Positions 9,907 through 60,486 are shown, numbered from the stretch's first letter. The stretch: 64,000 nucleotides of DNA from Candidatus Omnitrophota bacterium (GCA_026387355.1 JAPLLW010000008.1:1016-65015); one strand, 5' to 3'. Made by a program: numbers and translations. Notes: a model not told the origin generated them from the letters alone.

Positions 9907-9908
9907 GG

Positions 9909-15332: not shown

Positions 15333-15333
15333 A

Positions 15334-16233: not shown

Positions 16234-16246
16234 TATATTTTAGAAT

Positions 16247-37150: not shown

Positions 37151-37172
37151 TTTAATAATAAAGGGGGTTAAT

Positions 37173-41900: not shown

Positions 41901-42042
41901 TACCATAATTGGAGGAGTAACTCTTTCGACGGTGCTAACACTTTTTGTCGTTCCTTGCGCCTATTCTCTTTTCAGTAAAATTGAGCGTAAGAAATTCGGT
42001 ATTTCCAGAAAAGATTCTAAAAGAGTAGGTGAGTTAAAATGA
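38920..42042 (+). CDS. RND efflux transporter (AcrB/HAE1-like)
   Basis: 1040 aa with 12-TM pseudo-symmetric architecture; 'FAWMLMAALMIFGIISY', 'GLSLAIGIVVDDAIMVLENI', 'LGLILLMGIVKKNSILLVDF'. Confidence 0.9.
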   Translation: MSLSDISIKNPVFAWMLMAALMIFGIISYSRLGVSQLPDIDFPVVSVSLTWEGAAPEVMESDVVDIVEDSIMSIQGVRDVSSSIRQGSANITIEFDLGRDIDVAVQDVQNKIQQVQKRLPNDIDPATISKVNPEDQPIVMITFSSATMPLRDLMTYVQDHLKDQFATISGVGEIYLGGYVDRNLRIWVDSSKLEAYQLTVQDVIDAVEKQHEEIPAGRLETSKDERNIRVMGEAGTPEEFGNIIIPKRNGLPVFRPIYIKNVATIEDGLADIRRIARTNGKQTVALGIRKQRGANEVEAAHGVLKRLEEVNKSLPKEIEANVRYNRTKFSEDSIHELVFTLLLSALVTSLVCWAFLGSWSATLNILLAIPTSILGTFIIIYFMGFTLNTFTVLGLSLAIGIVVDDAIMVLENIVRRKEEGEEQIIAAREGARQISFAAGAATAALIAIFLPVAFMIGIIGKFFYQYGVTISVAVALSLLEALTLTPMRCSQFLQVGERSTVFGRFIEKSFRWSAEKYKKLLTHALHFRVWVLIITTLLFFGSLYLVKILRKEFLPSQDQSMFICRMQTPVGSSIDFTAEHFKLAEDFISKRPEVQGYTSLIGGFSGGEVNSGIIFVTFKDPKERPVVPPNKRPLSQNQLMIIFRQELNKIPDVRATIQDLSLSGFSAQRGFPIEISLRGPDWDKLAIYSEKMRKLMSESPLMVDVDTDYLERVPEIEIIPFRERASSRGVSITTIGNAIDALIGGKRIGKYTKDGRRYDVRIRVVPNQRNDLEDIENIWVWNNLGELVQLKEVVTIIQKPKPITITRRNRERAISLFSNVAQGKSQTDALKEVERIAKEVLPEGYRIVLTGSTQTFKESFSSLIFALLLGILIAYMVLASQFNSYIHPIVVLLALPFSISGALVTLWIGNQSLNIFSLIGLILLMGIVKKNSILLVDFTNQMRNDNLDLHSALLKACPIRLRPILMTSIATIAAAIPPALALGPGAETRIPMAITIIGGVTLSTVLTLFVVPCAYSLFSKIERKKFGISRKDSKRVGELK

Positions 42043-42533
42043 AGAGCGTCTTAGTTTATTATTCACATTACGGTAATACTGCGAATGTTGCAAGCGAGGT
42101 ACAAGACTATTTGAGAAAACTGGGAACAGTGGATAAGCTAGAGATAGAATATTTTTCTAAGAATAAGGGGTTGCTTGAGAGGGTATTCTATAGGTTATTA
42201 CCTAACTTAGTTAACATAGCTTCGATAAAAACAGATTTAAAGGAATACGACCTTATATGTTTTGGAATACCGGTTTGGGGCGGCAGACCTTCTGCTCCAA
42301 TAATAAGATACCTGAAGCTTTGCAAAAATATTCAAAATAAGAAGATAATATGTTTTTACATCTTTGGTGTTGATGCGAGCGCTAAGATTTGCGCTGAGTA
42401 CGTCGGTAAGGCTTTAGGCAAAAAAACCCATAGGACAATAGTAAATGTCTTTATCCCGTGGGCAAATGTGCACGATGATAATTTTATAAAGGATTCATTT
42501 AGAGAAGTCTTTAAGGACGAAAAAACTACCTAA
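42039..42533 (+). CDS. Flavodoxin-like fold protein
   Basis: 'MKSVLVYYSHYGNTANVA' N-terminal flavodoxin-type phosphate-binding loop; 'ICFGIPVWGG'. Confidence 0.5.
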   Translation: MKSVLVYYSHYGNTANVASEVQDYLRKLGTVDKLEIEYFSKNKGLLERVFYRLLPNLVNIASIKTDLKEYDLICFGIPVWGGRPSAPIIRYLKLCKNIQNKKIICFYIFGVDASAKICAEYVGKALGKKTHRTIVNVFIPWANVHDDNFIKDSFREVFKDEKTT

Positions 42534-42654
42534 CTATAGGCCTTTCTTATATTTTTAATCCAAAAATAATTTGCTTGACAGGTATGAATTTATTTAATAA
42601 AATGGTTTCAGGTTAGATTAGTAAAATTTTACTATATTTTAAGGAGCGTTTAGA

Positions 42655-42927
42655 ATGGATTGGGATAATCTTGTTAAAGATAAATTTCAGAAAATGATTA
42701 TTAAGATTCCTTTATTTCATCGCCGGATTACCGAAGAAGCGGTAAATAAAAGGGCGCAAGAGAATGCTTTGGCTAGAAAATCGACAAAGATTGAAGAAGT
42801 TGATGTAATTACTGCTTTCTTTTCGGATGTGCCGTCTCCTTTTTATAGTATGATGATTCGATTGCTTGAGCAGGCTGGATTTGATTATAGGAGATATGGT
42901 TTTCCTAAGGGAGAAAAAACAAGATGA
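42655..42927 (+). CDS. Hypothetical small protein
   Basis: 90-aa ORF with RBS 'aaggag' upstream; no recognisable motif. Confidence 0.3.
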   Translation: MDWDNLVKDKFQKMIIKIPLFHRRITEEAVNKRAQENALARKSTKIEEVDVITAFFSDVPSPFYSMMIRLLEQAGFDYRRYGFPKGEKTR

Positions 42928-43931
42928 AAATAGCAGTAATAGGCGCAGGGGCAATAGGAAGTCTTGTCGCCGGTTATTTAAAACTAAAAGGCGAAGATGT
43001 CTATTTGGTAGGCCGCCCAGCTACTGTTAAGGCAATAAAGGAGAATGGCTTAAAGATTAGCGGTTGCCGCGGAGAATTTAAGGCGTCGGTGGATATTTAC
43101 GAAATGCTTGTTTCTAGTCCCAAGCTGCTTATTCTGGCAACAAAAACTCAAGATATTAATCAGTTTTTAAGGGATAACTTAAGTTTAATTAAAGATTCAA
43201 TAATCTTAACTACGCAGAATGGGGTCCAGGCGGATAATATCGTTGCTAAGGTTCTTCCTAAAAAGAATATAGTCTCTAGCATAATTATGTTTGGGGCCAC
43301 ATATTTGGATCCGGGTAAGGTTGTGCATAATTTTGAAGGGAGCTGGATTTTAGGTAATATATTTGGCCAGGGGACTAATACAAATACGATTTCCTTAAGT
43401 TTGTCTTTAAATAAATCATTTAACATTATGATAAGCGAAGATATATTAGGGATGAAATATCTAAAAATATTTGTTAATGCAAATAATTGTATCCCCGCCA
43501 TTCTGGGGGTGAGTATGCAGGAGGCTTTTTGCGACCCCGAGGTTAGCCGCATTAGTATTGCTATATGGAAAGAGGGATTTGACATAATTGATAAGCTAGG
43601 GATTAAATTAACTTCTTTGCCGGGTTTTCCGATAGAGAATATAACTAAGCTTATTGCGCTTGCTCCTCAAGAGGCAGCACAAGTTTTTTCAGGGATTATG
43701 ACTAAATTAAGCAAAGATCCTCTTTATGGATCTATATTGCAGAGCATTAAAAGGGGGAGATCTTCTGAGATTGATTATTTAAACGGTGAATTTGTAAGCC
43801 TGGCCAAGCAGAATAAGCTCGAGGCAGACTTAAATAAAAAGATGGTTGAGATGGTACATACAGTTGAACAGAATGGTAAATTCTTCAGCAAAGCTGAATT
43901 ATTAGCCGCGACAAAGGAATTCCTGAACTAA
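42924..43931 (+). CDS. 2-dehydropantoate 2-reductase family (PanE/ApbA-like) NAD(P)-dependent ketoreductase
   Basis: 'MKIAVIGAGAIGSLVAGYL' Rossmann N-terminus; family-typical length and 'QNG' region; C-terminal 'SILQSIKRGRSSEIDYLNG'. Confidence 0.75.
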   Translation: MKIAVIGAGAIGSLVAGYLKLKGEDVYLVGRPATVKAIKENGLKISGCRGEFKASVDIYEMLVSSPKLLILATKTQDINQFLRDNLSLIKDSIILTTQNGVQADNIVAKVLPKKNIVSSIIMFGATYLDPGKVVHNFEGSWILGNIFGQGTNTNTISLSLSLNKSFNIMISEDILGMKYLKIFVNANNCIPAILGVSMQEAFCDPEVSRISIAIWKEGFDIIDKLGIKLTSLPGFPIENITKLIALAPQEAAQVFSGIMTKLSKDPLYGSILQSIKRGRSSEIDYLNGEFVSLAKQNKLEADLNKKMVEMVHTVEQNGKFFSKAELLAATKEFLN

Positions 43932-43932
43932 A

Positions 43933-44532
43933 ATGTCTGAAGTGAATACCCCATTTCCAAAATTAAAACTAACTGTAACCGGTGTATTTGGCGTTTGTTA
44001 TCATGGTTACAAAAATGGTGATGAGATTATCTTAGAGGATTTTACTCATGCCCCTAAACATTTTTGTCTAGGATTAGCGCACGCTTTATTTCCGGTAATC
44101 TACGCTTTAAGTTTTGGCGCTAAATTCGGTTTTCGCGATAACCAGCGTTCACTTTTGGTTACCTGTCCTGATGGAGGAAAATTGGAGTTTCAGGCAGAGA
44201 TCCTGGATAAAAACGGTCAGGTAGAAACTCTAGCCCGCGATCCTAATCATAAGGGCCCTAACCCTAAGAAGATGGTCATTGAGGTAGTGCAGGCAAAGGG
44301 GAAATGTAGTTTTGGCTATAAAGTCGGAGACAAATGGGAGACTACGGGATTAAAATGTATCCCCGGTTTCTGCGGAGCGGCATTTCATACTGCCTTTCCG
44401 GCCTTGTTTGCTTTAAACTTTGGAGCAAAGTTTTTCTTTATGCAAGATCCAAATTCAATCGATACAGTTACCTGTCCCGATGGAGGAAATATAATTTTTA
44501 AAGTAACGCGAGTAGAAGAGGAGAGAAAATAA
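43933..44532 (+). CDS. Tandem-duplicated Cys/His-rich domain protein (two ~95-aa repeats each ending in CPDGG)
   Basis: Half 1 'GVCYHGYKNGDEI...HFCLGLAHALFPVIYALSFGAKFGF...VTCPDGGKLEF'; half 2 'GKCSFGYKVGDKW...GFCGAAFHTAFPALFALNFGAKFFF...VTCPDGGNIIF'. Confidence 0.5.
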   Translation: MSEVNTPFPKLKLTVTGVFGVCYHGYKNGDEIILEDFTHAPKHFCLGLAHALFPVIYALSFGAKFGFRDNQRSLLVTCPDGGKLEFQAEILDKNGQVETLARDPNHKGPNPKKMVIEVVQAKGKCSFGYKVGDKWETTGLKCIPGFCGAAFHTAFPALFALNFGAKFFFMQDPNSIDTVTCPDGGNIIFKVTRVEEERK

Positions 44533-45798
44533 TTGATGAACAAGCGTAGAGTTGTTATTACAGGTATCGGAGTAGTTTCTCCGAATGGCATTGGTAAGGA
44601 GAATTGTTTTAAGGGGATGATTTCTGGAAAGTCTGGGATTAAGCGTGTTGACGGATTTGATGTGGCAATCTTTAATACTAAAATTGCTGCTGAGGTGCGT
44701 GATTTCGATCCTTTTAAATTAGGGCTTAACCATGATGAAGCTATGCGTATGGATAGATATGTTCAGTTTGGCGTGGTCGCAGGAAACATGGCGATTAAAG
44801 ATAGTGGATTAGACCTTTCTAAAGAGGATCCAGAGCGTATCGGAGTATGTCTTGCCAATGCTATTTGCGGGACAAAATACATGGAAGAGGAGTTTGCCCT
44901 AGTTACTGATGATGGGAAGAAACCTATTGATCCAGCTTTAGTGCGGCCGGACCTATATGATGCTGCCATGTTTAATACTCCCTCAATTGAATTAAGCGCT
45001 AAGTATGGTTTCAAAGGCAATTGCAATACGCTTTCAACGGGTTGTACCGCCGGGACAGATTCACTTGGGTTTGGTTTAGAGACAATTCAGGATGGGGAGC
45101 AGGATATAATGATTTGTGGCGCAGCCGAAGCGCCGATTACGCCGATCACCTTTGGCGCGTTTGATGTGGTAAATGTCTTATCAGTAAGAAATGATGAGCC
45201 TGAAAAGGCCTCGCGGCCTTTTGATAATAAACGCGACGGATTTGTTTTATCGGAAGGGGCCGGGATTTTAGTTTTGGAAGAATTAAACCATGCGTTAAAA
45301 CGAAATGCCAGGATTTATTGCGAGGTTTTAGGATTTGGCACTAGCTGCAACGCCTTTCATATGACTGATCTTCCTTCAGATGGAGGGGCAATGGTTAGTT
45401 GTATTTCTCTAGCTTTAAAAGACTCAGGCGTAAGGCCTGAGGAAGTAGATTACATCAGCGCTCATGGATCATCTACGCGCATGAATGATATCTTTGAGAC
45501 AAGCGCTTATAAGACTATATTCGGAGAGTATGCATATAAATTACCGATAAGCTCCTTAAAGTCTATGATTGGCCACCCCTTAGCTGCGGCTAATGCAATA
45601 GAGATGACAGTCTGCTCTATGATTTTTGAAAGGAATATCTTGCCTCCTACCATTAATCAAGAAGAAAAAGATCCTCTTTGCGATTTGCATTATATACCGA
45701 ATAAGGCAATTGATAAAAAGGTAGATATGATTTTGAAAACAAGTAGTGGATTTTCAGGAATTCACTCTTCATTAGTCTTGAGGAGATATAATGGATAA
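44533..45798 (+). CDS. Beta-ketoacyl-ACP synthase (KAS I/II-like ketosynthase, catalytically complete)
   Basis: Cys-His-His triad present: 'LSTGCTAGTDS', 'YISAHGSSTRMND', 'KSMIGHPLAAANAIE'. Confidence 0.9.
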   Translation: MMNKRRVVITGIGVVSPNGIGKENCFKGMISGKSGIKRVDGFDVAIFNTKIAAEVRDFDPFKLGLNHDEAMRMDRYVQFGVVAGNMAIKDSGLDLSKEDPERIGVCLANAICGTKYMEEEFALVTDDGKKPIDPALVRPDLYDAAMFNTPSIELSAKYGFKGNCNTLSTGCTAGTDSLGFGLETIQDGEQDIMICGAAEAPITPITFGAFDVVNVLSVRNDEPEKASRPFDNKRDGFVLSEGAGILVLEELNHALKRNARIYCEVLGFGTSCNAFHMTDLPSDGGAMVSCISLALKDSGVRPEEVDYISAHGSSTRMNDIFETSAYKTIFGEYAYKLPISSLKSMIGHPLAAANAIEMTVCSMIFERNILPPTINQEEKDPLCDLHYIPNKAIDKKVDMILKTSSGFSGIHSSLVLRRYNG

Positions 45799-47032
45799 GA
45801 TAGCTGTAACTGGTATAGGGGTAGTTTCACCGTCCGGGATAGGTAAGCGCCAGCTTTGGGCAAATATCAAAAGCGGCCGTTCATTTATTAAAGAGATCAC
45901 TCGTTTCGATGCCTCTAAATACCCATCGCGCATTGCCGGGCAAATCGATGATTTGGAGAAATATAGCACTATCTCTGAGCGCTTGCTTAAGAAAATCGAC
46001 GCTTTCTCGCATATGGCCTTAATTGCTTCAGAGCTAGCTTTGCAGGATGCTGGAATAGATATTAAAAATGAAGATCCGAGTTTAGTAGGTATATTTCTGG
46101 GAAATGCTATCGGCGGATGGCTTTATGCCGAGACAGAACTGCGCGATATGTATATCGAAGGACGCGAAGGAGTTTCTCCTTATATGGCCTCAGCTTGGTT
46201 TCCGGCTGCGCCACAAGGCCAGGTCTCTATTTATTATGGTATAAAAGGATTCAGTAAGACAGTTGTCGCAGACAGGGCTAGTTCTTTAATGGCGCTAGGT
46301 TATGCCAGAAAAGTTTTAGCTAAAAATAAATTAAATATGATTTTAGGTGGAGGGATGGAAGCCCCAGTTACACCCTATGCGCTTTTATGCTGCAATACTT
46401 ACGGCGCATTATCAAAAGACAATTCTCATCCGCAAGAGGCATACCGGCCGCATGATAAAAAGAGGAATGGTTTTGTAATCGGCGAGGGTTCAGGTATTGT
46501 AGTTATGGAGAGTATTGAACGTGCAAAAAAGCGTCAGGCAAATATTTTAGCTTTAATCTCCGGATATGGCACAACCTGCGATGGGGTAGACCGGATTAAT
46601 TCTGCTAAAGACGGAAAAGAGCTTGCCCGGGCAATAAATATTGCACTTGTTGATGCAAAGGCAAATATCAATGAAATCAATTATATCAGTTTAGATGGAT
46701 TAGCAGTAGATATTTGGGATAATTCTGAAGTGTTGGCTTTAAAAGAAGTCTTTGGTAGCCGCATAAAAGAGATCCCGGTAAGCTGTCCTAAGTCCATGTT
46801 TGGTAATCTGCTCGGTGCTTCCGGGGCATTGGATATGATTATTGCTATACAGGCAATGGAGCACGCTTTAGTTCCTCCGACATTAAATTTAGATGAGCCG
46901 GCATCAAACGGGCTTAATTATATAGGTAAGCAGGCAAAAGAACATACAATCAGAAAAGCTCTGATTATATCACGCGGCAGAGGAGGGATTAATTCTGCGC
47001 TGGTAGTTGAGAAAGGGAGTAACAATGCTTAA
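45791..47032 (+). CDS. Ketosynthase-like partner lacking catalytic residues (chain-length-factor-like)
   Basis: Thiolase-fold homologue of the upstream KS, with the active-site Cys replaced ('TVVADRASS'), the first His absent ('YISLDGLAVD') and the second His replaced by Asn ('KSMFGNLLGASGA'). Its start overlaps the upstream stop (ATGGATAA). Confidence 0.75.
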   Translation: MDKIAVTGIGVVSPSGIGKRQLWANIKSGRSFIKEITRFDASKYPSRIAGQIDDLEKYSTISERLLKKIDAFSHMALIASELALQDAGIDIKNEDPSLVGIFLGNAIGGWLYAETELRDMYIEGREGVSPYMASAWFPAAPQGQVSIYYGIKGFSKTVVADRASSLMALGYARKVLAKNKLNMILGGGMEAPVTPYALLCCNTYGALSKDNSHPQEAYRPHDKKRNGFVIGEGSGIVVMESIERAKKRQANILALISGYGTTCDGVDRINSAKDGKELARAINIALVDAKANINEINYISLDGLAVDIWDNSEVLALKEVFGSRIKEIPVSCPKSMFGNLLGASGALDMIIAIQAMEHALVPPTLNLDEPASNGLNYIGKQAKEHTIRKALIISRGRGGINSALVVEKGSNNA

Positions 47033-47219
47033 GAAAATAGTATGTGCAGCTTCGTTTGTAGTTTTCGTATTGTGCGTTTATTCTTTTTTGGGTGGTAACA
47101 AAGTATTTGAAGGTAAATTTGAGAACGATTATGTTGCTTGGTATTTTCTGGCCAAAGGAATCTTTTGTTCTTTAGCGCTTTATTTATTAGTTTTAATTCT
47201 AGAGAAATTAAAAAAATAA
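47007..47219 (+). CDS. Small two-TM membrane protein (hypothetical)
   Basis: 70-aa hydrophobic ORF between the KS-like gene and the radical SAM gene. Confidence 0.3.
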   Translation: MRKGVTMLKKIVCAASFVVFVLCVYSFLGGNKVFEGKFENDYVAWYFLAKGIFCSLALYLLVLILEKLKK

Positions 47220-47229
47220 GGGAGGGGTA

Positions 47230-48693
47230 ATGAAGATTTTATTTGTTATGCCGAAAGTCGGAGCTTGGGCAACACACGGGATACATAGGTCTCCTAACCA
47301 GCTTTATGCACATTGGGCCTCATACGTTAGGGAGACACGCGGTTACGCAGATGTCGCAGTTATTGACGGTAAAGCTGACCAGCTTTCTATGGATGAGCTG
47401 ATTGAACAGGTAAAAAGCAAAAATCCTGATGTTGTGGTTATGGGAGAGCAGTTGCATGGTTACGGCGGATACGGTGTTTTGCGTCATTTTAAAGACGCAG
47501 CTGTTAGGATTAAGACAGTTTTACCTAAGACAAAGATAGTTTTGGGCGGGCTATGGTATTCTGCAATGCCCGTTCCTACACTCGAAGAGAATCCTGCGGT
47601 TGATTTTGTAGTTATGGGAGAAGAGGAATCATTTGGAGATTTGATTGAGGCGCTCGATAAGAATAAGCCCTTGAAAGACGTGGGTGGAGTTACTTCGCGC
47701 ATTGACGGCCAAATTGTTATGGGGCCACATAAGCCGCTTATGATGGATTTGGATAAGTTACCTCTTCCAGCGTACGATTTATTCCCTATGGATAAATATG
47801 TGGGGCATACTTACTGGAAACCGTTTGTAGATATGGTTACCTCGAGGGGTTGTCCATCTGCTTGCACATTTTGCTATGAATGGGATCAGTTTGATCCACG
47901 CTCACCGTCTGATTTTCTGAAATGGCGCGCGAAGTCTCCGGAGAGAGTTATGGAGGAGTTAAATCTCTTACATAAAAAATACGGGGTAAAGGTTGTGGTT
48001 ATTCAGGATGATAATTTTAATGTTGACCCTAAAAGAGTGCAGAAGTTCTGCGAACTTAAAAAAGCAGCAAATAATCCGATTAAGTGGGTATCTTTAGGTC
48101 GTGCCATTGATTGGGTTAACTGCGAATCAATCCTGCCGCTTATGAAAGAGAATGGTTTGTTTATGGGCGTATTCGGTATTGAGGTCACGACACAGTCGGA
48201 ACTCAAAAAAATCGCTAAAGGTATTACTCTAGACCAGATTAAAAAGACGATTGAGATCCTGCGCAGAAATGATATCGCGATTGTCGCAGATATTATGATG
48301 GGTTTTGATTATGATACCGAAGAGATCATTAAGCAGCGTTTTGAGTTTACTGATCAAGTGGACCCGGATATTTTGTGGGTGGGATACGTTACCCCTGCTC
48401 CGAATTCACCGATGTGGAGAATTGCTTTAAAGAAAAACTGGATTGATCCTAAGAAGGTAGATTTTAGCACATGGGATTTTCTACATCCGGTAATTCCCAC
48501 GGATCATTTAACTACTGAAGATTTAGGTAGGCTTGGTTCATGGTGTATGCGTGAGTTTTTCTCAAAACCCGGAAGAATCAACCGGATTATGGAGAGTGAT
48601 TTTGACCCGCTTGCAAAACTTTGTTTCCAGGATGTTATGAACGGTATTAATAAGTGGGAAGCAGCCGCGACTAAGGGAGAAGTGCAGATATAG
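47230..48693 (+). CDS. B12-binding-domain radical SAM protein (class B rSAM)
   Basis: N-terminal B12-binding-like region 'KILFVMPKV...VVVMGEQLHG', then the radical SAM cluster 'VTSRGCPSACTFC' (CxxxCxxC). Confidence 0.75.
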   Translation: MKILFVMPKVGAWATHGIHRSPNQLYAHWASYVRETRGYADVAVIDGKADQLSMDELIEQVKSKNPDVVVMGEQLHGYGGYGVLRHFKDAAVRIKTVLPKTKIVLGGLWYSAMPVPTLEENPAVDFVVMGEEESFGDLIEALDKNKPLKDVGGVTSRIDGQIVMGPHKPLMMDLDKLPLPAYDLFPMDKYVGHTYWKPFVDMVTSRGCPSACTFCYEWDQFDPRSPSDFLKWRAKSPERVMEELNLLHKKYGVKVVVIQDDNFNVDPKRVQKFCELKKAANNPIKWVSLGRAIDWVNCESILPLMKENGLFMGVFGIEVTTQSELKKIAKGITLDQIKKTIEILRRNDIAIVADIMMGFDYDTEEIIKQRFEFTDQVDPDILWVGYVTPAPNSPMWRIALKKNWIDPKKVDFSTWDFLHPVIPTDHLTTEDLGRLGSWCMREFFSKPGRINRIMESDFDPLAKLCFQDVMNGINKWEAAATKGEVQI

Positions 48694-48771
48694 ATTTTGC
48701 GGGTCCTGGCACGGGAGGCGCTTCTCGCGCTAAAACGCGCTTCGAAACATCCCCGTGCCACCCGTAAAATT
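48692..48771. repeat. Structured intergenic element (about 80 nt, nested hairpins); shares a 30-nt core with 49846..49895
   Basis: 'ttttgcgggtcc tggcacggg agg cgcttctcgcgc ... cccgtgcca cccgtaaaa': a 9-bp outer stem (ttttgcggg / cccgtaaaa with one G-U), a 9-bp inner stem (tggcacggg / cccgtgcca), and the GC hairpin ggcgc-ttctc-gcgc. Confidence 0.55.
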
Positions 48772-48812
48772 ATTTATTATTAATTGTTATTTATATTGCA
48801 GCAGGAGGGTTT

Positions 48813-49049
48813 ATGGATACAAAATCAAAAGTAAGAGACGTATTAGTAAATTTATTAAAAGTAAAGCCAGATGAATTAAAGGATGATTTGACTCTGCAGG
48901 AGAGTATTGGGGTTGATTCTACTGAGATGGTAGAGTCAGTGATTGCTTTAGAAAAATCGTTCGGGGTAAAGCTTAGCCCGAAGGAGATTACCAAGAATTC
49001 AACAGTTAATGATATTGCTAACAATATCCAATCAAAATTAGCCAAATGA
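48813..49049 (+). CDS. Acyl carrier protein
   Basis: 78 aa; 'LTLQESIGVDSTEMVESVIALEKSFGV' carries the DSxE phosphopantetheine-attachment motif; RBS 'ggaggg'. Confidence 0.8.
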   Translation: MDTKSKVRDVLVNLLKVKPDELKDDLTLQESIGVDSTEMVESVIALEKSFGVKLSPKEITKNSTVNDIANNIQSKLAK

Positions 49050-49843
49050 AGATAGTTGATTTAAGTCTACCGATTGACGAAAAAGCCTTTGAAGTGCATA
49101 AGGTTGATATCGAGCGGGTAACTCATAAAGCCGGTGTTGAGAAATTTAACCGCGTAATTATGGGTAAGACTTTAATCGGTAAAATCAAATACCTTTTGGG
49201 TCAGCGCATAATTAAGCCTCAAGATTTACCGGATGAGGAATTCCTCTCGCTTGAAATCGTGCATTCTCCGGTACATATCGGTACCCACCTGGATTATTCA
49301 TTCCATTACGGTTCAAAATCAGAAGGCCGCGCCTCTAAGACTGCAGATGAGATTCCTTTAGATTGGTGCTATTCTGACGGAGTAAAACTGGATTTATCTC
49401 ATAAGAAACCTAATGAAACGATAAAGGCGCTTGATTTAGCAGAAGCGCTTAAGAAGATAAATTATTTGCTTAAAGCAAATGATATTGTGTTGATCCGTAC
49501 TGGTGCAGATGAATTATACGGCGGACCAAAATATTTTATGGATTACCCCGGGATTGATACATCGTCTATAGATTTTCTTCTGGATAAAGGAATTAAAATA
49601 TTTGGCGTGGATACCATGGGAATTGACCGACCATACCGTTTTATGCTTAAAGAATTTATGGATACAAAAGATATAAAATGTTTTTACCCTGCGCATTTCT
49701 ACGGCAGGAAGCGTGAATTTATTCATATTGAGCGTTTAGCCAATTTAGAGAAATTGCCGGATTATGGATTTAAGGTAATCTGTTTCCCGATTAGAATAAA
49801 GAATACAGGTGCTGCCTGGGCAAGGGTTGTAGCATTATTATAG
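49046..49843 (+). CDS. Cyclase-family protein (kynurenine-formamidase-like metal-dependent hydrolase/cyclase fold)
   Basis: 'HSPVHIGTHLDYSFHYG' HxGTHxDxPxH signature. Confidence 0.7.
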   Translation: MKIVDLSLPIDEKAFEVHKVDIERVTHKAGVEKFNRVIMGKTLIGKIKYLLGQRIIKPQDLPDEEFLSLEIVHSPVHIGTHLDYSFHYGSKSEGRASKTADEIPLDWCYSDGVKLDLSHKKPNETIKALDLAEALKKINYLLKANDIVLIRTGADELYGGPKYFMDYPGIDTSSIDFLLDKGIKIFGVDTMGIDRPYRFMLKEFMDTKDIKCFYPAHFYGRKREFIHIERLANLEKLPDYGFKVICFPIRIKNTGAAWARVVALL

Positions 49844-49845
49844 AA

Positions 49846-49895
49846 TTTTTACTGGTCCTGGCACGGGCGCTTCTCGCGCCAAGCCCCGCAAAGTT
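49846..49895. repeat. Second copy (partial, rearranged) of the structured intergenic element
   Basis: 'ggtcctggcacggg-cgcttctcgcgcc' core is identical to 48702-48730 apart from a 3-nt indel. Its 3' flank 'ccccgcaaag' is the reverse complement of the other copy's 5' flank 'ttttgcgggt'. A GC hairpin ggcgc-ttctc-gcgcc is present. Confidence 0.5.
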
Positions 49896-49913
49896 AGATA
49901 AAAGGAGAATGTT

Positions 49914-50357
49914 ATGGCTGGACATACTTGTAATTCGATTGTTATCAATGCGCCTTATGAGAAGATCTTTGATATTTCAAATGATATTACTCGTTGGACA
50001 GAATTATTCGGCACGGAGTATAAGAAGGCAGAAGTAGTAAAAAAAGAGGCAAACAAAATCACTTTCCGTCTTACGGATGAGGATGACAAGAGCTGGCAGT
50101 CCTGGCGCCTGCTTTTTAAAGATAAATATTTTGCCTATGCCGAACGCGAAGAGCCGAAATTTCCTTTTAAGTATATGAAGATCGTCTGGCTTTATACCCC
50201 TAAGCCCGAAGGCATCGAAATGACCTGGATTCAGCACTTTGAAATGGAAAAAGATTTTAAGTTCAATGACCAGCAGATTGAAGGTTTTATTAATGAAGGC
50301 TCTAAAGAAAACCTTAAGATCTTTAAGCGGATTATTGAAAAAGAAGCTGCTAAGTGA
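49914..50357 (+). CDS. SRPBCC-superfamily protein (polyketide cyclase/dehydrase-like, Polyketide_cyc2 type)
   Basis: 147 aa; 'SIVINAPYEKIFDISNDITRWTELF' START/Bet v1-like N-terminus typical of the TcmN/SnoaL-adjacent cyclase family. Confidence 0.5.
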   Translation: MAGHTCNSIVINAPYEKIFDISNDITRWTELFGTEYKKAEVVKKEANKITFRLTDEDDKSWQSWRLLFKDKYFAYAEREEPKFPFKYMKIVWLYTPKPEGIEMTWIQHFEMEKDFKFNDQQIEGFINEGSKENLKIFKRIIEKEAAK

Positions 50358-51481
50358 AGAAGTCGACTTTTGTTATTTTATGTCTGGAAGGCGCGGTTTT
50401 ATCTTTTAACGTTGCCGCCGCAGCTGCTTTAATACCTTCAATCGCACAAGATTTTGCTCTTTCTCAATTTCTGGTTGGTAATATTGTATGGCTATATATG
50501 ATCCCTTATGGACTGGCTGCGTTTTTCTACGGTCCTCTGATTAGGGCTTTTGACGCAAGGCGCGTAGAATTAATCTGCATGTTTTTGTTTTCCGTAGCAA
50601 ATCTAGTTGCCGGTTTGTCACATAATATTACAACTTTATTTATTGCGCGATTTTTAATGGGGTTATTCGGGGCATCAGTTATACCGCTGGGGTTAATCTT
50701 AATCGGCCAGCGCATATCTCAGGATAGGCGTGGTCGTTTTATCGGAGTATTTTTTAGCACTACCTTTGTTGCGTCTTTGGCGGGACTATTCTTAAGTGGG
50801 ATAATCTCTTGGCGTTTGATTTTCTTGATCCCGGCGGCCCTAGGGTTTCTTCTTTGGGTAGGCATGTATTTTTATCTCCCAAGCTTTAAGGAAGAAAACA
50901 GGATCTTTCGCATGGATTATATTTTGGCTTTTAAGAATAAGAATGTCGTACGCATATTTACCTATATTCTTTTTATCAGCCTTATTTATCATGGTATACA
51001 GCAGTGGTTGGGGGTCTATTTCTCAACCCAGTTAAATTTAAGTCAGTTTATGATCAGTATGCTTATAACATTAACTAGCTTAAGCGGGATTGTGGGAGAG
51101 GTCTGGGGGGGAAGCCTTGCGGATTCGCTAGGTAGACAAAGAGTAGTTAATATAGGTATTATTGCCATGATTGTTTGTATCGGTATCTTAATATTAAAAT
51201 TACCTTTAGCCATTATAGCTTTAGCGATGATTATTTGGGGGTTGGGTTGGACCTTTAACCACGTGGGGTTAGCGACTATGCTTACTGATCTACCGAAAGA
51301 ATTATTAAATGAGGCAGCGAGCTTAAATAGCGGAGTGCGTTTTCTTGCGGGTGGCATAGGAGTTAGTCTGGGTGGTTTGATTATGCATAAGAGTTTTAGT
51401 CTCGGGTTTATTATTTTCGGAAGCGCGTTAACCATGCTTTTATTATCAGGTAAATTAATTAATATAAAAAATAGGGGGTAA
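50354..51481 (+). CDS. MFS transporter
   Basis: 12 TM helices; 'GPLIRAFDARR' MFS loop 2-3-like motif. Confidence 0.75.
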   Translation: MKKSTFVILCLEGAVLSFNVAAAAALIPSIAQDFALSQFLVGNIVWLYMIPYGLAAFFYGPLIRAFDARRVELICMFLFSVANLVAGLSHNITTLFIARFLMGLFGASVIPLGLILIGQRISQDRRGRFIGVFFSTTFVASLAGLFLSGIISWRLIFLIPAALGFLLWVGMYFYLPSFKEENRIFRMDYILAFKNKNVVRIFTYILFISLIYHGIQQWLGVYFSTQLNLSQFMISMLITLTSLSGIVGEVWGGSLADSLGRQRVVNIGIIAMIVCIGILILKLPLAIIALAMIIWGLGWTFNHVGLATMLTDLPKELLNEAASLNSGVRFLAGGIGVSLGGLIMHKSFSLGFIIFGSALTMLLLSGKLINIKNRG

Positions 51482-51483
51482 CT

Positions 51484-52260
51484 ATGAACCAGGACTTAAA
51501 AGGTAAAGTTGCGATTCTAACAGGAGCTAGTCGAGGTATTGGTAAGGCACTTGCTTGCACAGCTGCAGGCTTAGGGATCAACTTAACTCTTGCTGCGCGC
51601 GGAGAGGGTCCCTTGAAGGAGACAGCTGATGAGATTGCCAAGAAATATAAAGTTCAGGTTTTACCTGTTTCTTGCGATGTTACAAAGTTAGAAGATTTGG
51701 AGAATCTGGTGAATAAGACAAAAGAAAAATACGGTAAAATTGATATTCTGATTAATTGCGCAGGTGTATCCAGTCAGTTTCCTTTTCAGTTGCAGCCGAT
51801 AGAGGATTTTGAGAGATTGGCGTATACCAATTATCTAGGTTATGTGCGGCTTATCCGTTTAGTGATCAATGATATGATCGAGCAGAAATACGGGGCAATT
51901 ATAAATATAGTCTCAGGTTCCACCCTGGTCGACCCTGTTCCGAGAAACTTTATTGTTTATAGCTCTTTAAAGGTAGGGTTACGTGCTTTTTCTAAGGGGC
52001 TCTTCTGGGAATTACGCGATCATGGGATTAAAGTAACTTCAATATTGCCGGGGGTAACAGATACTGATCTTACCGGGAAGTTGAAAGATATCACTAATGA
52101 TACATCGCGTTTAATGAGTACTCAGGCAATCGAAGATGCGGTTAAGTTTGCTTTGACCGTGCCGCAGAATGTCTGCCCGCTTGAGATTTCTGTAATCAAT
52201 CAGCAAACGCCATGGACTGCGCCGGTTATACCATTTAAACAAGCGCACCCGGGTAAATAA
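51484..52260 (+). CDS. Short-chain dehydrogenase/reductase (SDR; ketoreductase-like)
   Basis: 'TGASRGIGKALA' and 'NCAG' motifs; catalytic 'YSSLK'. Confidence 0.85.
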   Translation: MNQDLKGKVAILTGASRGIGKALACTAAGLGINLTLAARGEGPLKETADEIAKKYKVQVLPVSCDVTKLEDLENLVNKTKEKYGKIDILINCAGVSSQFPFQLQPIEDFERLAYTNYLGYVRLIRLVINDMIEQKYGAIINIVSGSTLVDPVPRNFIVYSSLKVGLRAFSKGLFWELRDHGIKVTSILPGVTDTDLTGKLKDITNDTSRLMSTQAIEDAVKFALTVPQNVCPLEISVINQQTPWTAPVIPFKQAHPGK

Positions 52261-52280
52261 AACAACGGGAAAGTTAAGAA

Positions 52281-52676
52281 ATGATGCAAGAAAATGATTT
52301 AAAGAACTTGAAAAAACGCTATCTTATCTGGTTTTACAAAGTCAGTAAAGAGGCTTTGGATAAAATTGAGCGTAAATTCTCGCAGGTTGATATCGACCGC
52401 TTTATCTTAAAAAAGCTGAAGAGATCAGATAAGCATGAAGCCATAGAATTTTTTATCGCGCAGTTTTCTGATTATATCGAGAAAAAAGAACAGGATGGCT
52501 TGAATCTCAAGTTCGAAAATAAAAAGTTAAAACCGGAGTATTTATTCTTGGTTTTGAAATTACAGGCGATTGAGAAGGCGATAGTAAAAGAGTTGGGAAA
52601 GAAAGCTCTTGTTGAGATTAAGCGGCTTTATGAGACAGAGATGACTGAGCGCATTTTAAGGAGCACAGAACACTAA
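52281..52676 (+). CDS. Hypothetical protein
   Basis: 131-aa Lys/Glu-rich ORF, co-directional within the cluster. Confidence 0.3.
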   Translation: MMQENDLKNLKKRYLIWFYKVSKEALDKIERKFSQVDIDRFILKKLKRSDKHEAIEFFIAQFSDYIEKKEQDGLNLKFENKKLKPEYLFLVLKLQAIEKAIVKELGKKALVEIKRLYETEMTERILRSTEH

Positions 52677-53582
52677 ATGTTAGTTGATAGCCACTCACAT
52701 TGGTTACCAGAGGCAATAATCAGCAATGCCCATTTTTATCATAAAGGTTGGGGGGATATTGAGGCTCAACTAAAGATGATGGATGAAGCGGGTATTGATA
52801 AGGCAGTCTTATCTTATCCGACTTCGGATGCGCATCTAAAATTAGGAAGTATCTCAGAAGTCGTACGTATTTTTAACGACCATGTGGCAAGGGTTTTAAA
52901 GAAATATCCGGAGAGATTTATCGGCGCAGCAATTCTACCGATTGATCATGAGCAGGATATGATTAAAGAATTTAAACGCGCAACCGAAGAGCTAGGTTTT
53001 AAGGCAATTTCATTAGCTACAAGTTATAACGGGGTTTACCTAGACGACGCTAGATTCCTTAATATTTATAAATTAGCCCAAGATGAGAATATTCCTATCT
53101 TTGTGCATTCGCAAATTGTAAAACCTATTGGTATTGAACGAGTGGAAGATCCGTTACTTACCCCAGTGATCGAGTATGTTTTTGATACGACTATATGCAT
53201 CGGTAAGCTTTTAATGTCGGATATTCTGCGCGATTATCAGGCGAAGTTTATCTTTGGTTATTTTGGAGGTGTGACTCCGTTTTTAGCAAATCGCTTTGAC
53301 ACAACCTATGCAATGTTGCGGGGGGTGAATTTTGTTAAGGATTTAAAAGGTAATCCTACAGATTTCTTAAAGAATATTTATGTTGATACTAGCGGAGATA
53401 AAACTAAGGCCAATTTTGCTGCGGCTTTAGAGCTGGTTGGGCCAAAACATATTCTATGGGGGAGCGACTATCCGGCAAAGAAAGATACCTCCTCAGGCAT
53501 TCAGGCAATTAAAGAATTAGGTATATCAGTAGATGATAAGAATAATATTTTGGGAGGCAATTTAGAAAGGATGCTAAAATGA
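52677..53582 (+). CDS. Amidohydrolase-2 family (TIM-barrel metal-dependent hydrolase/decarboxylase)
   Basis: 'MLVDSHSHWLP' N-terminal HxH; 'FVHS'; 'WGSDYP' C-terminal Asp motif. Confidence 0.65.
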   Translation: MLVDSHSHWLPEAIISNAHFYHKGWGDIEAQLKMMDEAGIDKAVLSYPTSDAHLKLGSISEVVRIFNDHVARVLKKYPERFIGAAILPIDHEQDMIKEFKRATEELGFKAISLATSYNGVYLDDARFLNIYKLAQDENIPIFVHSQIVKPIGIERVEDPLLTPVIEYVFDTTICIGKLLMSDILRDYQAKFIFGYFGGVTPFLANRFDTTYAMLRGVNFVKDLKGNPTDFLKNIYVDTSGDKTKANFAAALELVGPKHILWGSDYPAKKDTSSGIQAIKELGISVDDKNNILGGNLERMLK

Positions 53583-54046
53583 AGCTGGAAATTACGGTTT
53601 TAACTTTATTTTTAGCGGTATTTTATATGAATCTATTAACTGCTGAGCCAATGCCCGAGGCAATTGCAGTAAATGATCAGACAAAGGAGTGCGCAGTATT
53701 TTTTCTAGGTGATGAATGCACGGATTGTAGTGTACCAGAGGGGTGGAGGCAGACAGGCTATTCTAATCAGTCTGATTGCCCGGATGGATATAAGAAGATT
53801 GATACTGTTGAATCAGTATGCACCCCGAGAAAAACAGCTTTTTGTTGTTCAGAAAATCATTCCGGGACTAATGGTAATTGCCGGGATTTAGTTATTAATG
53901 AAACAAGTAAAGAATGCGCTTTTTTAGAAGATGTAAATAGTTGTTTAAGTTTGTCGCAAGGATGGAAAACAGGAGACTTGTGTCCGGGTAATTTTCAGTG
54001 GCAACAGGATCCCCTTGATTGTGGAACAAGAAGTAAACAAAATTAA
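53579..54046 (+). CDS. Secreted Cys-rich protein with an internal repeat
   Basis: Signal peptide; 12 Cys residues; two repeats '[ST]KECA...C...GW(R/K)(Q)TG...CP(D)G(Y/N)(K/F)'. Confidence 0.45.
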   Translation: MKLEITVLTLFLAVFYMNLLTAEPMPEAIAVNDQTKECAVFFLGDECTDCSVPEGWRQTGYSNQSDCPDGYKKIDTVESVCTPRKTAFCCSENHSGTNGNCRDLVINETSKECAFLEDVNSCLSLSQGWKTGDLCPGNFQWQQDPLDCGTRSKQN

Positions 54047-54134
54047 TGTATTTATAGCGGGTGGCTGCTGATATGGGATGGATCAGCAGACAGGACCCGC
54101 TAAGAAAAGAATAAAAATAAAAAGGAGAAATAAG

Positions 54135-54884
54135 ATGCAGATGGTTAAAGATGTACATTTAACGGGTAAAGATTTAACTGATATGGTGCAACTCAGGCCG
54201 CAGGATGTGGGCAAATATGCGATTGTCCCGGGCCCTCGCGATAGGCTGGACGTCTTATTGAAGAAATTCGATAATCCGGTGAAGAATTTTACTTTTATGG
54301 AATATTCCATGTATACAGGTATGGTCGAAGGAGTAAGAATAAGCGCGATTAACGGCGGAAGGTTTTCGACGGATACCTCAATTACGACAGAAGTTATCTG
54401 TAATGCGCAAATCCAGAATATTATCCGCGTAGGTACTTGCGGTTCACTCGATGAAAATATCAAAATTGGAGATATATTCGTGGTTGATGAGATAATCCGC
54501 GGAGACGGGGTTACTCCATATTATGTGGATAAGGATTTCAAGACCGTAGCGGATAAAAAGATCTCCGATACCTTATATGAAATAGGTAAAGGTATGGGTT
54601 TAAATATCCATCGCGGTAAAGCCTGGACTACTGATGCTCTTTTGCGAGAGACTCGAGAAATAGTTGAAGCCAAACGCAAGGAAGGAGCCAAGGTAGTAGA
54701 TATGGTTTCATCAACCCTGCTTACCATTGCCCAGACTTATAAAATTAAAGCCGGATCAATCCTTGCGGTAAGCGATAATGTAGTAACAGGCGAGATGGGC
54801 TTTATGAACCCTTTGTATTATATGGCAGAAGCAAATATTTTAAAGATTGCTTTGGAAGCTGTCAATAAGCTAGAATTAAAATAA
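54135..54884 (+). CDS. Nucleoside phosphorylase (PNP/UDP family 1; purine/uridine/MTA phosphorylase-like)
   Basis: 'HLTGKDL...YAIVPGPRDRLDVL' and 'IRVGTCGSL' are family signatures. The start is set at the ATG at 54135 with RBS aaaggag at 54121-54127. Confidence 0.75.
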   Translation: MQMVKDVHLTGKDLTDMVQLRPQDVGKYAIVPGPRDRLDVLLKKFDNPVKNFTFMEYSMYTGMVEGVRISAINGGRFSTDTSITTEVICNAQIQNIIRVGTCGSLDENIKIGDIFVVDEIIRGDGVTPYYVDKDFKTVADKKISDTLYEIGKGMGLNIHRGKAWTTDALLRETREIVEAKRKEGAKVVDMVSSTLLTIAQTYKIKAGSILAVSDNVVTGEMGFMNPLYYMAEANILKIALEAVNKLELK

Positions 54885-55207
54885 TGCATACACTTTCGAG
54901 AGTTATAGGAATCTGGTTTATTTTACTGGGGTTAGGATTGACTATGGGGTATGGTCTTAACAATCCAGAGGAAAGCAGGAAAGGGATTCTCTTTTTTATA
55001 TTTATGACTTTCATTATTTTGGGGATTGGGGTTACTGGTTTAAGGAACTGGGCAAGAATCGCCTTAACTTTTGCTACAGCTTTTGCAGTAGTTGTTTCTC
55101 TTATGTATAATCTTCGCGAAGGTTTAGTAATGCTGATACTTTTTTCACCGGTTATCGTTTTGCAGCTAAAGAGTGCTAAGAAGCAGTTTACTCTTTGGAA
55201 ACCATGA
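54884..55207 (+). CDS. Small membrane protein (hypothetical)
   Basis: 107 aa with 3-4 hydrophobic helices. Confidence 0.3.
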   Translation: MHTLSRVIGIWFILLGLGLTMGYGLNNPEESRKGILFFIFMTFIILGIGVTGLRNWARIALTFATAFAVVVSLMYNLREGLVMLILFSPVIVLQLKSAKKQFTLWKP

Positions 55208-57128: not shown

Positions 57129-57130
57129 AT

Positions 57131-58615: not shown

Positions 58616-58628
58616 CGGATAAGATAAA

Positions 58629-59342: not shown

Positions 59343-59389
59343 GCTAATTTTTATTGACCGCTAGTCACTCTGGAAGTAAAATATAGACG

Positions 59390-60460: not shown

Positions 60461-60486
60461 TATTCTTTGGATTAGGGGAGGTTGAT

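Follow-up and report, generated by a model that had tools for sequence, protein, structure and literature searches.

A conserved Omnitrophota gene cluster with a type II polyketide synthase-like core: candidate for an oxygen-independent aromatic pathway with radical tailoring

Introduction

What does an operon-like gene set built around one intact and one catalytically dead ketosynthase (KS) make in an uncultivated anaerobic bacterium? The set in question lies in a 64,000-nt stretch of DNA from Candidatus Omnitrophota bacterium (GCA_026387355.1 JAPLLW010000008.1:1016-65015), the whole of which we call the window and to which all coordinates refer. A reading made from the sequence alone (the sequence-only reading) had drawn the set as a unit of about 11 kb ending at 53582; the conserved unit is longer, an operon-like block of about 16 kb at 42655-58615 that takes in four further genes. 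On balance, and with a little more confidence than doubt, we propose that this unit encodes an oxygen-independent aromatic type II polyketide pathway, with radical tailoring of the BchE/HpnJ kind and dedicated disposal of 5'-deoxyadenosine.

Nearly all work on type II polyketide synthases (PKSs) has treated them as sources of dispensable antibiotics and pigments in aerobic actinomycetes. The Omnitrophota are uncultivated, ultra-small anaerobes, and the phylum has no cultured member. The cluster described here stands apart in occurring in such organisms and in several anaerobic phyla, in being under purifying selection stronger than that on acetyl-CoA carboxylase, and in its tie to a BchE-like radical SAM (rSAM) enzyme and a pathway for a nucleoside by-product. 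If the proposal is right, a polyketide would have a core physiological role in Omnitrophota, and the cluster would offer a defined gene set for the direct study of oxygen-independent aromatic polyketide tailoring and of the orphan TIGR04076 family.

A bulk catalogue of KS and chain-length-factor (CLF) pairs lists Candidatus Omnitrophica among 14 phyla, with no further analysis (PMC10132072), and antiSMASH calls of "ladderane" clusters, their function unknown, have been published for Omnitrophota metagenome-assembled genomes (MAGs) (PMC9902471). Our literature search for a described Omnitrophota type II PKS product found bulk catalogues only, and polyketides are not mentioned in two phylum-level genomic studies of Omnitrophota. 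The expectation that the system would prove undescribed holds for its product and mechanism, but not for its KS-CLF pairs, which were already catalogued; nor is the cluster the rarity it had been taken for, being conserved in hundreds of Omnitrophota sequence clusters. What is new here is the combination of a core of the Arg-type CLF lineage with a fixed anaerobic set (a PanE-like reductase, a TIGR04076 protein and an aromatic-acid decarboxylase) and a co-inherited module of BchE-like rSAM and nucleoside-trimming enzymes.

Results

An intact ketosynthase and a dead partner of the type II lineage

Families were assigned by Pfam and NCBIfam profile searches of the open reading frames (ORFs) in the window, with curated cut-offs. 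KS1 (44533-45798; ketoacyl-synt N-terminal E 9e-43, C-terminal E 1e-30) is of KS-alpha type, with an intact Cys171/His311/His348 triad and the active-site motif STGCTAG. KS2 (45791-47032; 2e-43 and 7e-24, respectively), an inactive partner of CLF type, carries Arg, Asp and Asn at the triad positions when the two proteins are aligned. The start of KS2 overlaps the stop of KS1 by 8 nt (ATGGATAA, at 45791-45798). Both the loss of all three catalytic residues from the partner and the translational coupling of the pair had been claimed from the sequence alone, and both are borne out.

Among solved structures, KS1 is closest to the KS-alpha of the actinorhodin PKS (1TQY_A, 380 bits) and to Photorhabdus AntD (6SMO_B, 367 bits), FabF structures scoring 352 bits or less; it aligns with the first two without the five-residue gap needed for the FabFs, and the ishigamide KS (6KXD) reaches 254 bits only. 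A neighbour-joining tree of 83 sequences (410 columns, 100 bootstraps) places KS1 in a KS-alpha clade with 100% bootstrap support, together with the actinorhodin KS-alpha, AntD and cyanobacterial, Ktedonobacter and myxobacterial KS proteins, and with no FabF-like member. Nested in this clade is another, with 93% support, made up of KS1 and its orthologues from Omnitrophota, Thermodesulfobacteriota, Dehalococcoidales and Nitrospirota. KS2 falls among the inactive KS partners of the same tree, on a side that is weakly supported (21-24%); it scores higher against FabF structures (266 bits) than against the actinorhodin CLF (234 bits), and AntE is not in its best 60 matches.

A search of 1.8 billion representative proteins sets KS2 in a broad family of dead KS proteins that have a D-[R/K]-A-S motif, with Arg or Lys in place of the catalytic Cys. 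All A subunits keep STGC with Cys-His-His, and the B subunits of the cluster have D-[R/K]-x-S in all but one, the Nitrospirota protein, which has Ile. Canonical actinomycete CLFs have Gln at the Cys position, from which the Arg of KS2 differs. The predicted heterodimer of KS1 and KS2 shares its dead-partner architecture with the actinorhodin (1TQY) and AntD/AntE/AntF anthraquinone (6SMO) PKSs, which also have a discrete acyl carrier protein (ACP), a ketoreductase and aromatase/cyclase-type partners in common with the cluster.

A further parallel comes from the Gloeocapsa pair, gloKS and gloCLF. Like KS1, gloKS is a KS-alpha with STGC (49% identity); like KS2, gloCLF (37% identity) has Arg for the active-site Cys (CDRASGA) and an ATAWFP motif, and the DRAS and AWFPA motifs of KS2 recur in both gloCLF and the CLF of Ktedonobacter racemifer. 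The minimal PKS (KS, CLF, ACP) of Gloeocapsa sp. PCC 7428 forms 13C-malonate-derived dodeca- and tridecaketides (C24-C26) in vitro (PMC11744666). Hosts of gloPKS-type systems are aerobes or phototrophs, and the C24-C26 chain length is not transferable to the Omnitrophota cluster. The K. racemifer KS-CLF, a further experimentally handled pair, is our locus L067; because such Arg-type pairs from outside the actinomycetes (gloPKS, KrKSCLF) express well in E. coli, experiments on the present pair are feasible. Sequence, phylogeny and co-inheritance together place KS1 and KS2 in the type II PKS lineage, as a KS-alpha type and a CLF type.

Could the pair and its ACP instead be a housekeeping fatty-acid synthase (FAS)? 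KS1 does pass the generic beta-ketoacyl-ACP synthase II subfamily model NF005589 (446 bits against 387), a gene for the acetyl-CoA carboxylase alpha subunit (AccA) lies syntenic with the cluster 6 kb upstream, and the evidence comes from the window and related loci rather than from whole genomes checked for a second FabF. However, both KS proteins fall below the cut-off of the FabF equivalog TIGR03150 (493.75; KS1 459.8, KS2 365.9), and the ACP (48813-49049; PP-binding E 8e-11), which has a DST serine motif, is below every housekeeping AcpP equivalog and subfamily cut-off (52.8 against 71). One of the two KS genes is catalytically dead, the unit holds no FabH, FabD, FabZ or FabI, and the cluster is patchy in phyla that would be expected, from general knowledge, to have a FAS II of their own. 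The sequence-only reading had allowed that the KS pair might belong firmly with FabF/FabB; the tree puts KS1 in the KS-alpha clade instead. Because of that placement, and because KS1 and the ACP fall below the equivalog cut-offs, we reject primary fatty-acid synthesis, on the evidence of the window and related loci, as extremely improbable.

The gene set recurs across phyla in shuffled order

An alignment of Arg-type dead KS proteins, run against 185,579 species genomes, gave 80 loci, and related loci were searched by tblastn with the window proteins. The same gene set is found in more than 50 independent genomes, a recurrence that shows the grouping not to be due to chance. The full set of p90, ApbA, TIGR04076, KS, CLF, rSAM, ACP, PF04199, SRPBCC, MFS, SDR and Amidohydro_2 genes is present in several dozen Omnitrophota MAGs, a count that takes in MAGs labelled "uncultured Planctomycetales" whose version of the cluster is 80-88% identical. 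A Thermodesulfobacteriota MAG (L003) has most of the set, rSAM included, and so, but without rSAM, do Dehalococcoidales MAGs (L031, L051) and a Nitrospirota MAG (L075). Cyanobacterial, Ktedonobacter, Pseudonocardiales and myxobacterial loci have only KS, CLF, PF04199 and/or SRPBCC genes in common with the window, at 35-55% identity, and are ordinary type II PKS relatives. The cyanobacterial and Ktedonobacter clusters resemble the window in their PF04199 cyclase and/or SRPBCC genes, but are without its ApbA, TIGR04076, Amidohydro_2 and B12-rSAM genes and without the phosphorylase, isomerase, aldolase and aldehyde dehydrogenase (ALDH) genes described below.

Loci with a Planctomycetales or Planctomycetia title and an Omnitrophota-type cluster are L005, L007, L012, L023, L025, L028, L029, L038, L043, L049, L056, L057, L068 and L070, and some of the Planctomycetales-titled ones share the flanking ComM-DUF212-YkuD-AccA-PadR synteny. 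These MAGs are probably labelled too coarsely or wrongly.

At least three gene orders exist in Omnitrophota. Order A, that of the window, runs p90-ApbA-T-KS-CLF-rSAM-ACP-Cyc-SRPBCC-MFS-SDR-h-Amh-PNP-Iso-Ald-ALDH, where T is the TIGR04076 gene, Cyc the PF04199 gene, h the hypothetical gene, Amh the Amidohydro_2 gene, and PNP, Iso and Ald the phosphorylase, isomerase and aldolase genes. Order B runs PNP-Iso-Ald-ALDH-rSAM-p90-ApbA-(T)-KS-CLF-ACP-Cyc-SRPBCC-MFS-SDR-Amh, and order C runs PNP-p90-ApbA-T-KS-CLF-ACP-Cyc-SRPBCC-MFS-SDR-rSAM-Amh-Iso-Ald-ALDH. In order C the phosphorylase gene heads the operon, before p90, so that the module of PNP, isomerase, aldolase and ALDH genes is split around the PKS genes; in all three orders ALDH stands directly 3' of the aldolase gene. 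The position of the rSAM gene is mobile within the cluster and tracks the four module genes. Both rSAM and module are present in 30 loci, and L031 and L075, which have sequence beyond the cluster (upstream, 0.4 kb only in L031), have neither; only in L042 does rSAM occur without the module despite at least 3 kb of sequence on both sides. That the genes have stayed together while their order changed, and in more than one phylum, is sound evidence of a single functional unit. The possibility left open earlier, that the neighbours of the KS pair are unrelated by co-occurrence in other genomes, is answered by their co-occurrence in four phyla in spite of the shuffled order. The core claim made from the sequence alone, a minimal type II PKS with a class B rSAM enzyme, is likewise upheld by the phylogeny of KS1, by the CLF motifs shared with the active gloCLF and by this co-occurrence.

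These data bear on a rival view of the module, namely that it serves general catabolism of nucleoside ribose (ribose-1-phosphate to ribulose-1-phosphate, then to dihydroxyacetone phosphate (DHAP) and glycolaldehyde, and on to glycolate), is unrelated to the PKS, and lies beside it through shared genome ancestry. The phosphorylase does resemble uridine and purine phosphorylases, the aldolase has a weak match to the ribulose-1-phosphate aldolase model (65 bits), the ALDH matches lactaldehyde dehydrogenase models, and L042 has no module within 3 kb. Yet the link to the cluster has held through three gene orders, one of which splits the module around the PKS genes, it recurs in a different phylum (L003), and the module is missing from the very loci, L031 and L075, that also lack rSAM, all of which makes the ribose-catabolism view quite unlikely.

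In one Omnitrophota subclade, exemplified by L010, unrelated ORFs stand between KS and CLF (9520-9978), CLF and ACP (11272-12714) and cyclase and SRPBCC genes (13979-15265) in that locus; the insertions break the KS-CLF translational coupling seen in the window, and the subclade is also without the TIGR04076 gene.

The core is conserved like primary metabolism

Between the window and L001, the cluster is more conserved (TIGR04076 86%, KS1 81%, KS2 83%, rSAM 86%, SDR 81% and phosphorylase 83% identity) than the housekeeping comparators AccA (76%) and ComM (61%). In the other eight AccA-bearing loci, L002 being left out as a duplicate of L001, the KS/CLF/rSAM core is conserved about as much as AccA or more. 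For KS2, the identity is 83-92% over the best 120 sequence clusters listed. The best 120 clusters listed in each of the homologue searches with KS2, the TIGR04076 protein and the aldolase are Omnitrophota orthologues at 74-100% identity, with no distant relatives among the matches listed; the distant relatives described here come from the representative-protein search and the genome scan. This pattern is typical of primary metabolism and is the most unusual property of the cluster. Since the core is more conserved than AccA, its product probably serves a core cellular function rather than being a dispensable antibiotic.

A BchE/HpnJ-like radical SAM enzyme and a nucleoside module

The cobalamin-binding (class B) rSAM enzyme (47230-48693; Pfam B12-binding and Radical_SAM) has the CxxxCxxC motif (GCPSACTFC). 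Its best NCBIfam models are BchE (205.7 bits, cut-off 481) and HpnJ (157.6 bits, cut-off 578), both missed, while the class B methyltransferase families give at most 115 bits, also below their cut-offs. By profile score, then, BchE and HpnJ are its nearest relatives, without equivalog membership, and they share with it the pairing of B12-binding and radical SAM domains. BchE is the anaerobic Mg-protoporphyrin monomethyl ester cyclase, and HpnJ contracts the ring of the hopanoid cyclitol ether; their chemistry, oxidative cyclisation and ring contraction (C-C rearrangement), is independent of oxygen and is not methylation. From this nearness we infer that the enzyme stands in, under anaerobic conditions, for the oxygenases that tailor the products of aerobic type II pathways. 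Of the two chemistries that the sequence-only reading had offered, unusual C-C chemistry thus gains (205 and 158 bits for BchE and HpnJ, ahead of the methyltransferases) and C-methylation becomes the less likely. The genomic context differs: BchE and HpnJ are embedded in chlorophyll and hopanoid synthesis, the present enzyme in a PKS, where actinorhodin-type systems have aerobic oxygenase tailoring instead.

Two further assignments were tried and rejected. A cispentacin system of the AmcF/AmcB type gave scores far under the cut-offs (162 against 325 and 31.5 against 80), and membership of the ladderane-associated family TIGR04072, which bears on the ladderane-type comparison made from the sequence alone, fails at 70.8 bits against 360. 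Clusters of the antiSMASH "ladderane" class do resemble the window in having FabF-like KS genes, an ACP, a B12 radical SAM gene and anaerobic hosts; the window differs in its failure against TIGR04072, in a KS of KS-alpha type and in accessory genes of aromatic-PKS type. By identity, the rSAM genes of the different loci divide into at least two classes (47-55% and 68-94%), and the division does not parallel the divergence of KS. Locus L056 has, at 17358-18803 after Amidohydro_2, a second, divergent B12-rSAM paralogue (43% identical), its upstream rSAM being 52% identical.

The four module genes, 3' of 53582 and all on the + strand, encode a hexameric-type nucleoside phosphorylase (54078-54884; PNP_UDP_1, E 1e-32), an MtnA-like, eIF-2B-related sugar-1-phosphate isomerase (55195-56130; IF-2B E 2e-53), a class II aldolase with a C-terminal, lipid-binding SCP2 domain (56127-57128; Aldolase_II E 1e-33, SCP2 23.2 bits against 21.3) and an NAD(P)+-dependent ALDH (57131-58615; Aldedh E 3e-165). 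The phosphorylase scores best against the models of uridine phosphorylase (106 bits) and DeoD (90), ahead of methylthioadenosine (MTA) nucleosidase (41) and MTA phosphorylase (MTAP; 22), and its closest structures are uridine phosphorylase and the DeoD purine nucleoside phosphorylase, the Sulfolobus hexameric MTAP giving 46 bits. The isomerase passes the MtnA/eIF-2B-related subfamily model only (TIGR00524, 192.5 bits against 185.9) and is below the MtnA equivalog cut-offs; it is encoded together with the aldolase, the two genes overlapping (56127 against 56130). The closest structures to the aldolase are 6VOQ and 6VOP, both named only "Aldolase", FucA, and 6BTD, deposited as a fuculose phosphate aldolase. 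The SCP2 domain (PF02036) is precomputed for many aldolase orthologues, and full-length matches that include it occur in distant loci.

Enzymes of the DHAP shunt, or 5-deoxyribose disposal, are MtnP or MtnN plus MtnK, MtnA or DrdI, and Ald2 or DrdA. The module encodes these families in matching order (first a nucleoside-cleaving enzyme, then an isomerase of the MtnA family and then a class II aldolase), beside an rSAM gene. It differs from the shunt in a phosphorylase that is UP/DeoD-like rather than MtnP-like, in the SCP2 domain on its aldolase, in a fixed fourth member (ALDH, or the aldehyde:ferredoxin oxidoreductases (AORs) of L003) and in belonging to a PKS operon. Read most simply, the module would serve to clear 5'-deoxyadenosine set free by rSAM, after the manner of the DHAP shunt, a reading that leaves the conserved SCP2 unexplained.

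That domain keeps open a second use of the module, the trimming of an adenosylated hydrophobic intermediate. Like MqnE and HpnH, rSAM would here add the 5'-deoxyadenosyl radical to its substrate, in this case the polyketide; by trimming the ribose, the module would then turn the adduct into a hydrophobic scaffold extended by a two-carbon carboxymethyl group. The fusion to SCP2 points to a hydrophobic substrate for the aldolase, the ALDH reaches 432 bits against phenylacetaldehyde dehydrogenase models, the module is interleaved with the PKS genes in order C and co-inherited with rSAM, and L003 has AORs where no ALDH homologue was found. The phosphorylase, to which the role of MqnB or HpnG would fall, is weakly similar to HpnG (41 bits) and futalosine hydrolase (26 bits), but much nearer to ordinary uridine and purine phosphorylases. 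Nothing in the sequence separates adenosylation from plain salvage, and we know of no cobalamin-binding rSAM enzyme that adenosylates its substrate; we consider this course decidedly improbable. Still less probable is an extension of it, in which the product would be an essential polyketide-derived cofactor or quinone-like membrane redox carrier made wholly without oxygen in the ultra-small Omnitrophota and a few further anaerobes, rSAM attaching the 5'-deoxyadenosyl group and the module trimming its ribose to a two-carbon acid side chain. Were that true, it would be a new way to extend a polyketide and a new use of DHAP-shunt enzymes.

A proposed pathway and the evidence for and against it

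The remaining genes of the unit can be fitted to the oxygen-independent aromatic pathway that we favour. The ORFs at 42655-53582, twelve in number and all on the + strand, have small or negative gaps, the largest spacers being 197 bp (47033-47229) and 119 bp (48694-48812); both the ORF list and the profile annotation agree with the twelve genes, positions, single strand and minimal spacers reported from the sequence alone. From family behaviour, KS1 and KS2 are predicted to form a heterodimer that would elongate a malonyl-derived poly-beta-keto chain on the discrete ACP, with malonyl loading and phosphopantetheinylation presumably borrowed from elsewhere in the genome.

Two reductases would reduce specific carbonyls of the chain. 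One is a PanE/ApbA-family NAD(P)H ketoreductase (42924-43931; ApbA E 2e-32, ApbA_C E 6e-17; TIGR00745 169.5 bits against 141), whose gene is kept beside the KS pair in Omnitrophota, Thermodesulfobacteriota, Dehalococcoidales and Nitrospirota. The other is an SDR ketoreductase (51484-52260; adh_short E 1.4e-48, with a KR domain match) that has YxxxK and is no FabG equivalog (115 bits against 298).

Folding and cyclisation may fall to the SRPBCC protein, of the polyketide cyclase/dehydrase fold (49914-50357; Polyketide_cyc 31 bits against 23.4, Polyketide_cyc2 26.2 bits, just below cut-off), and to the metal-dependent "cyclase" family protein (49046-49843; PF04199 E 8e-28). The SRPBCC gene is beside KS/CLF in almost all related loci, the actinomycete ones included. 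The PF04199 protein has an HxGTHxDxxxH motif and, among solved structures, weak matches to isatin hydrolase only, and its gene accompanies KS/CLF also in cyanobacterial, Ktedonobacter, Pseudonocardiales and Vitiosangium loci. At the level of families, ketoreductase and cyclase partners (SDR, Polyketide_cyc, PF04199) are present in the cluster and accompany the KS pair across phyla.

The Amidohydro_2 enzyme (52677-53582; Pfam E 1e-22), placed in the branch of non-oxidative aromatic-acid decarboxylases, is closest in solved structures to the 5-carboxyvanillate decarboxylase LigW, ACMSD and gamma-resorcylate decarboxylase; it has HxH and GSDYP metal-ligand motifs, and its gene is conserved in all four phyla. 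These relatives would fit decarboxylation of a hydroxy-aromatic acid, and the LigW/ACMSD-like enzyme may remove the carboxyl group of the acid that results from cyclisation. An oxygen-independent oxidative or C-C-forming step by the rSAM enzyme would follow the example of its nearest families and take a place filled by oxygenases in aerobic type II pathways. With every turnover 5'-deoxyadenosine, which is inhibitory, would be released, and phosphorylase, isomerase, aldolase-SCP2 and ALDH could convert it to DHAP and an aldehyde, and the aldehyde to an acid, in the manner of the DHAP shunt. The co-inheritance of module and rSAM is an observation; the chemistry we infer.

In Omnitrophota the product is probably exported by the MFS protein (50354-51481; MFS_1 E 3e-44), a transporter of DHA-type, efflux-like character whose gene is in most Omnitrophota loci and absent from the Thermodesulfobacteriota, Dehalococcoidales and Nitrospirota versions. 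Two conserved proteins would be partners in the pathway. The 199-aa tandem TIGR04076 protein (43933-44532; two repeats, E 1.5e-28, no Pfam match) has TCPDGG twice, closing each Cys/His repeat and invariant in 26 homologues; its structure model is moderate, with no convincing structural neighbour, and its gene is missing from the one Omnitrophota subclade. The 90-aa protein p90 (42655-42927, +; a weak DUF2621 match, E 4e-4, below cut-off) is encoded by the first gene of the unit, adjoins the ApbA or the rSAM gene in every gene order and has orthologues at 37-71% identity in most related loci.

Several points weigh against the pathway as drawn. On the side of the core, the CLF-side clade of the tree has weak support (21-24%), no malonyl-CoA:ACP acyltransferase or phosphopantetheinyl transferase is encoded at 42655-58615, and aromatic polyketide clusters are not usually conserved to such an extreme degree. 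Lipid- or quinone-binding proteins and amide hydrolases are found in the SRPBCC and PF04199 families too, whose cyclase roles here are assumed. In the module, the phosphorylase is nearer to uridine and purine phosphorylases than to MTA or 5'-deoxyadenosine enzymes, and SCP2 is unexpected on an aldolase for a small hydrophilic 5-deoxy sugar phosphate. Locus L003 has genes for an MMPL transporter and a LolA-like, lipid-export protein 5' of rSAM.

Some of these points are shared with another candidate, an unusual envelope or membrane lipid that KS, CLF and ACP would build as a hydrophobic, largely aliphatic or partly cyclised chain, with C-C bonds or rings made by rSAM. Conservation at the level of primary metabolism would suit such a lipid, as would the lipid-binding SCP2 domain, the MMPL and LolA-like genes of L003, the PlsC acyltransferase gene at 58629-59342 and the "ladderane" clusters reported in Omnitrophota (PMC9902471). 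On the other hand, neither a hotdog dehydratase nor an enoyl reductase is found in the unit in any gene order, KS1 is firmly KS-alpha and not FabF, rSAM misses TIGR04072 (71 bits against 360), PlsC is conserved in no related locus, and the trio of cyclase, SRPBCC protein and aromatic-acid decarboxylase fits ring formation. The envelope lipid had been put forward in the sequence-only reading as an equal alternative; it is weakened by this evidence, and we retain it as an unlikely rival. The companion comparison with aryl polyenes, or with highly reducing type II PKSs, was rejected, the families it calls for (hotdog dehydratases, thioesterase, adenylation enzyme) being absent among the ORFs of 42655-59342.

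The Thermodesulfobacteriota locus L003 also differs in its redox genes, with two AORs in the cluster. It also has an FMN_red flavoprotein gene 3' of rSAM and a gene for an amine-oxidase/phytoene-desaturase-like flavoprotein; with the MMPL and LolA-like genes, these extra genes lie in regions 1-7000 and 13269-17188 of the locus. The extra genes of L003 hint that the product is hydrophobic and handled at the outer membrane, and that its aldehyde chemistry is linked to ferredoxin.

Boundaries, spacers and neighbouring genes

KS2 is 100% identical to a protein of a Candidatus Omnitrophota MAG at NCBI, in which the entries for the cluster proteins (MCX5700402-420) have generic names throughout. A hypothetical protein of 131 aa (52281-52676), with no family match, has orthologues at 46-77% identity in window-type loci only, a close Omnitrophota group.

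Two ORFs that interrupt the unit, for a Cys-rich 155-aa protein with an N-terminal hydrophobic leader (53579-54046) and for a 107-aa hydrophobic protein (54884-55207), have no family match; they were considered as members and set aside, having no homologue in related loci. The 197-bp spacer between KS2 and rSAM is filled by a 70-aa ORF with a TTG start and two hydrophobic helices (47007-47219). It has no tblastn match in 82 related loci, the spacer DNA is not conserved, and a gap at MCX5700407 in the NCBI numbering suggests that this ORF was annotated. A regulatory RNA in the spacer, such as a cobalamin riboswitch, was also considered and dropped, since no family reached threshold in an Rfam scan of the whole window. 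Counts in a scan for promoters and terminators equalled the shuffled expectation, the sole noteworthy match lying upstream of 42655: the best sigma-70-like match of the region (11/12), at 42575-42603 just 5' of p90, which is a consensus match only.

On the 3' side, 58629-61074 encodes the PlsC-type acyltransferase, a DUF362 protein with two 4Fe-4S motifs and an HSP20, none of them conserved beside the unit elsewhere; PlsC (58629-59342) was rejected as a member, having no homologue in related loci. On the 5' side, genes for MarR, an outer-membrane efflux protein, an AcrB-type RND pump and a flavodoxin (37146-42533) lie between PadR and the first cluster gene. This block, too, was rejected as part of the unit, being missing from L001 and L002 and variable elsewhere. 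Other loci have different RND pumps (about 30% identical) at the same spot, or flavodoxin alone (L026), and the site appears to be a variable slot for efflux and electron-donor genes.

The AccA gene, at 35625-36572, is syntenic with the cluster in about ten Omnitrophota loci, and AccA homologues are also near KS/CLF in several actinomycete loci (L061, L071, L079, L080, L082); the proximity may reflect a linkage to malonyl-CoA supply.

Almost half of the window (275-31000) is a locus of polysaccharide or lipopolysaccharide type. Two Wzz/GNVR/tyrosine-kinase-like genes stand at 275-2419 (+) and 26730-28820 (-), and the locus further holds Wzy, a flippase, many GT1, GT4 and GT9 glycosyltransferases, methyltransferases, a DegT aminotransferase, WbqC, PIG-L and Poly_export. 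Inside it, at 18081-19235, is a gene for a radical SAM protein with a SPASM domain, which is unusual for such loci.

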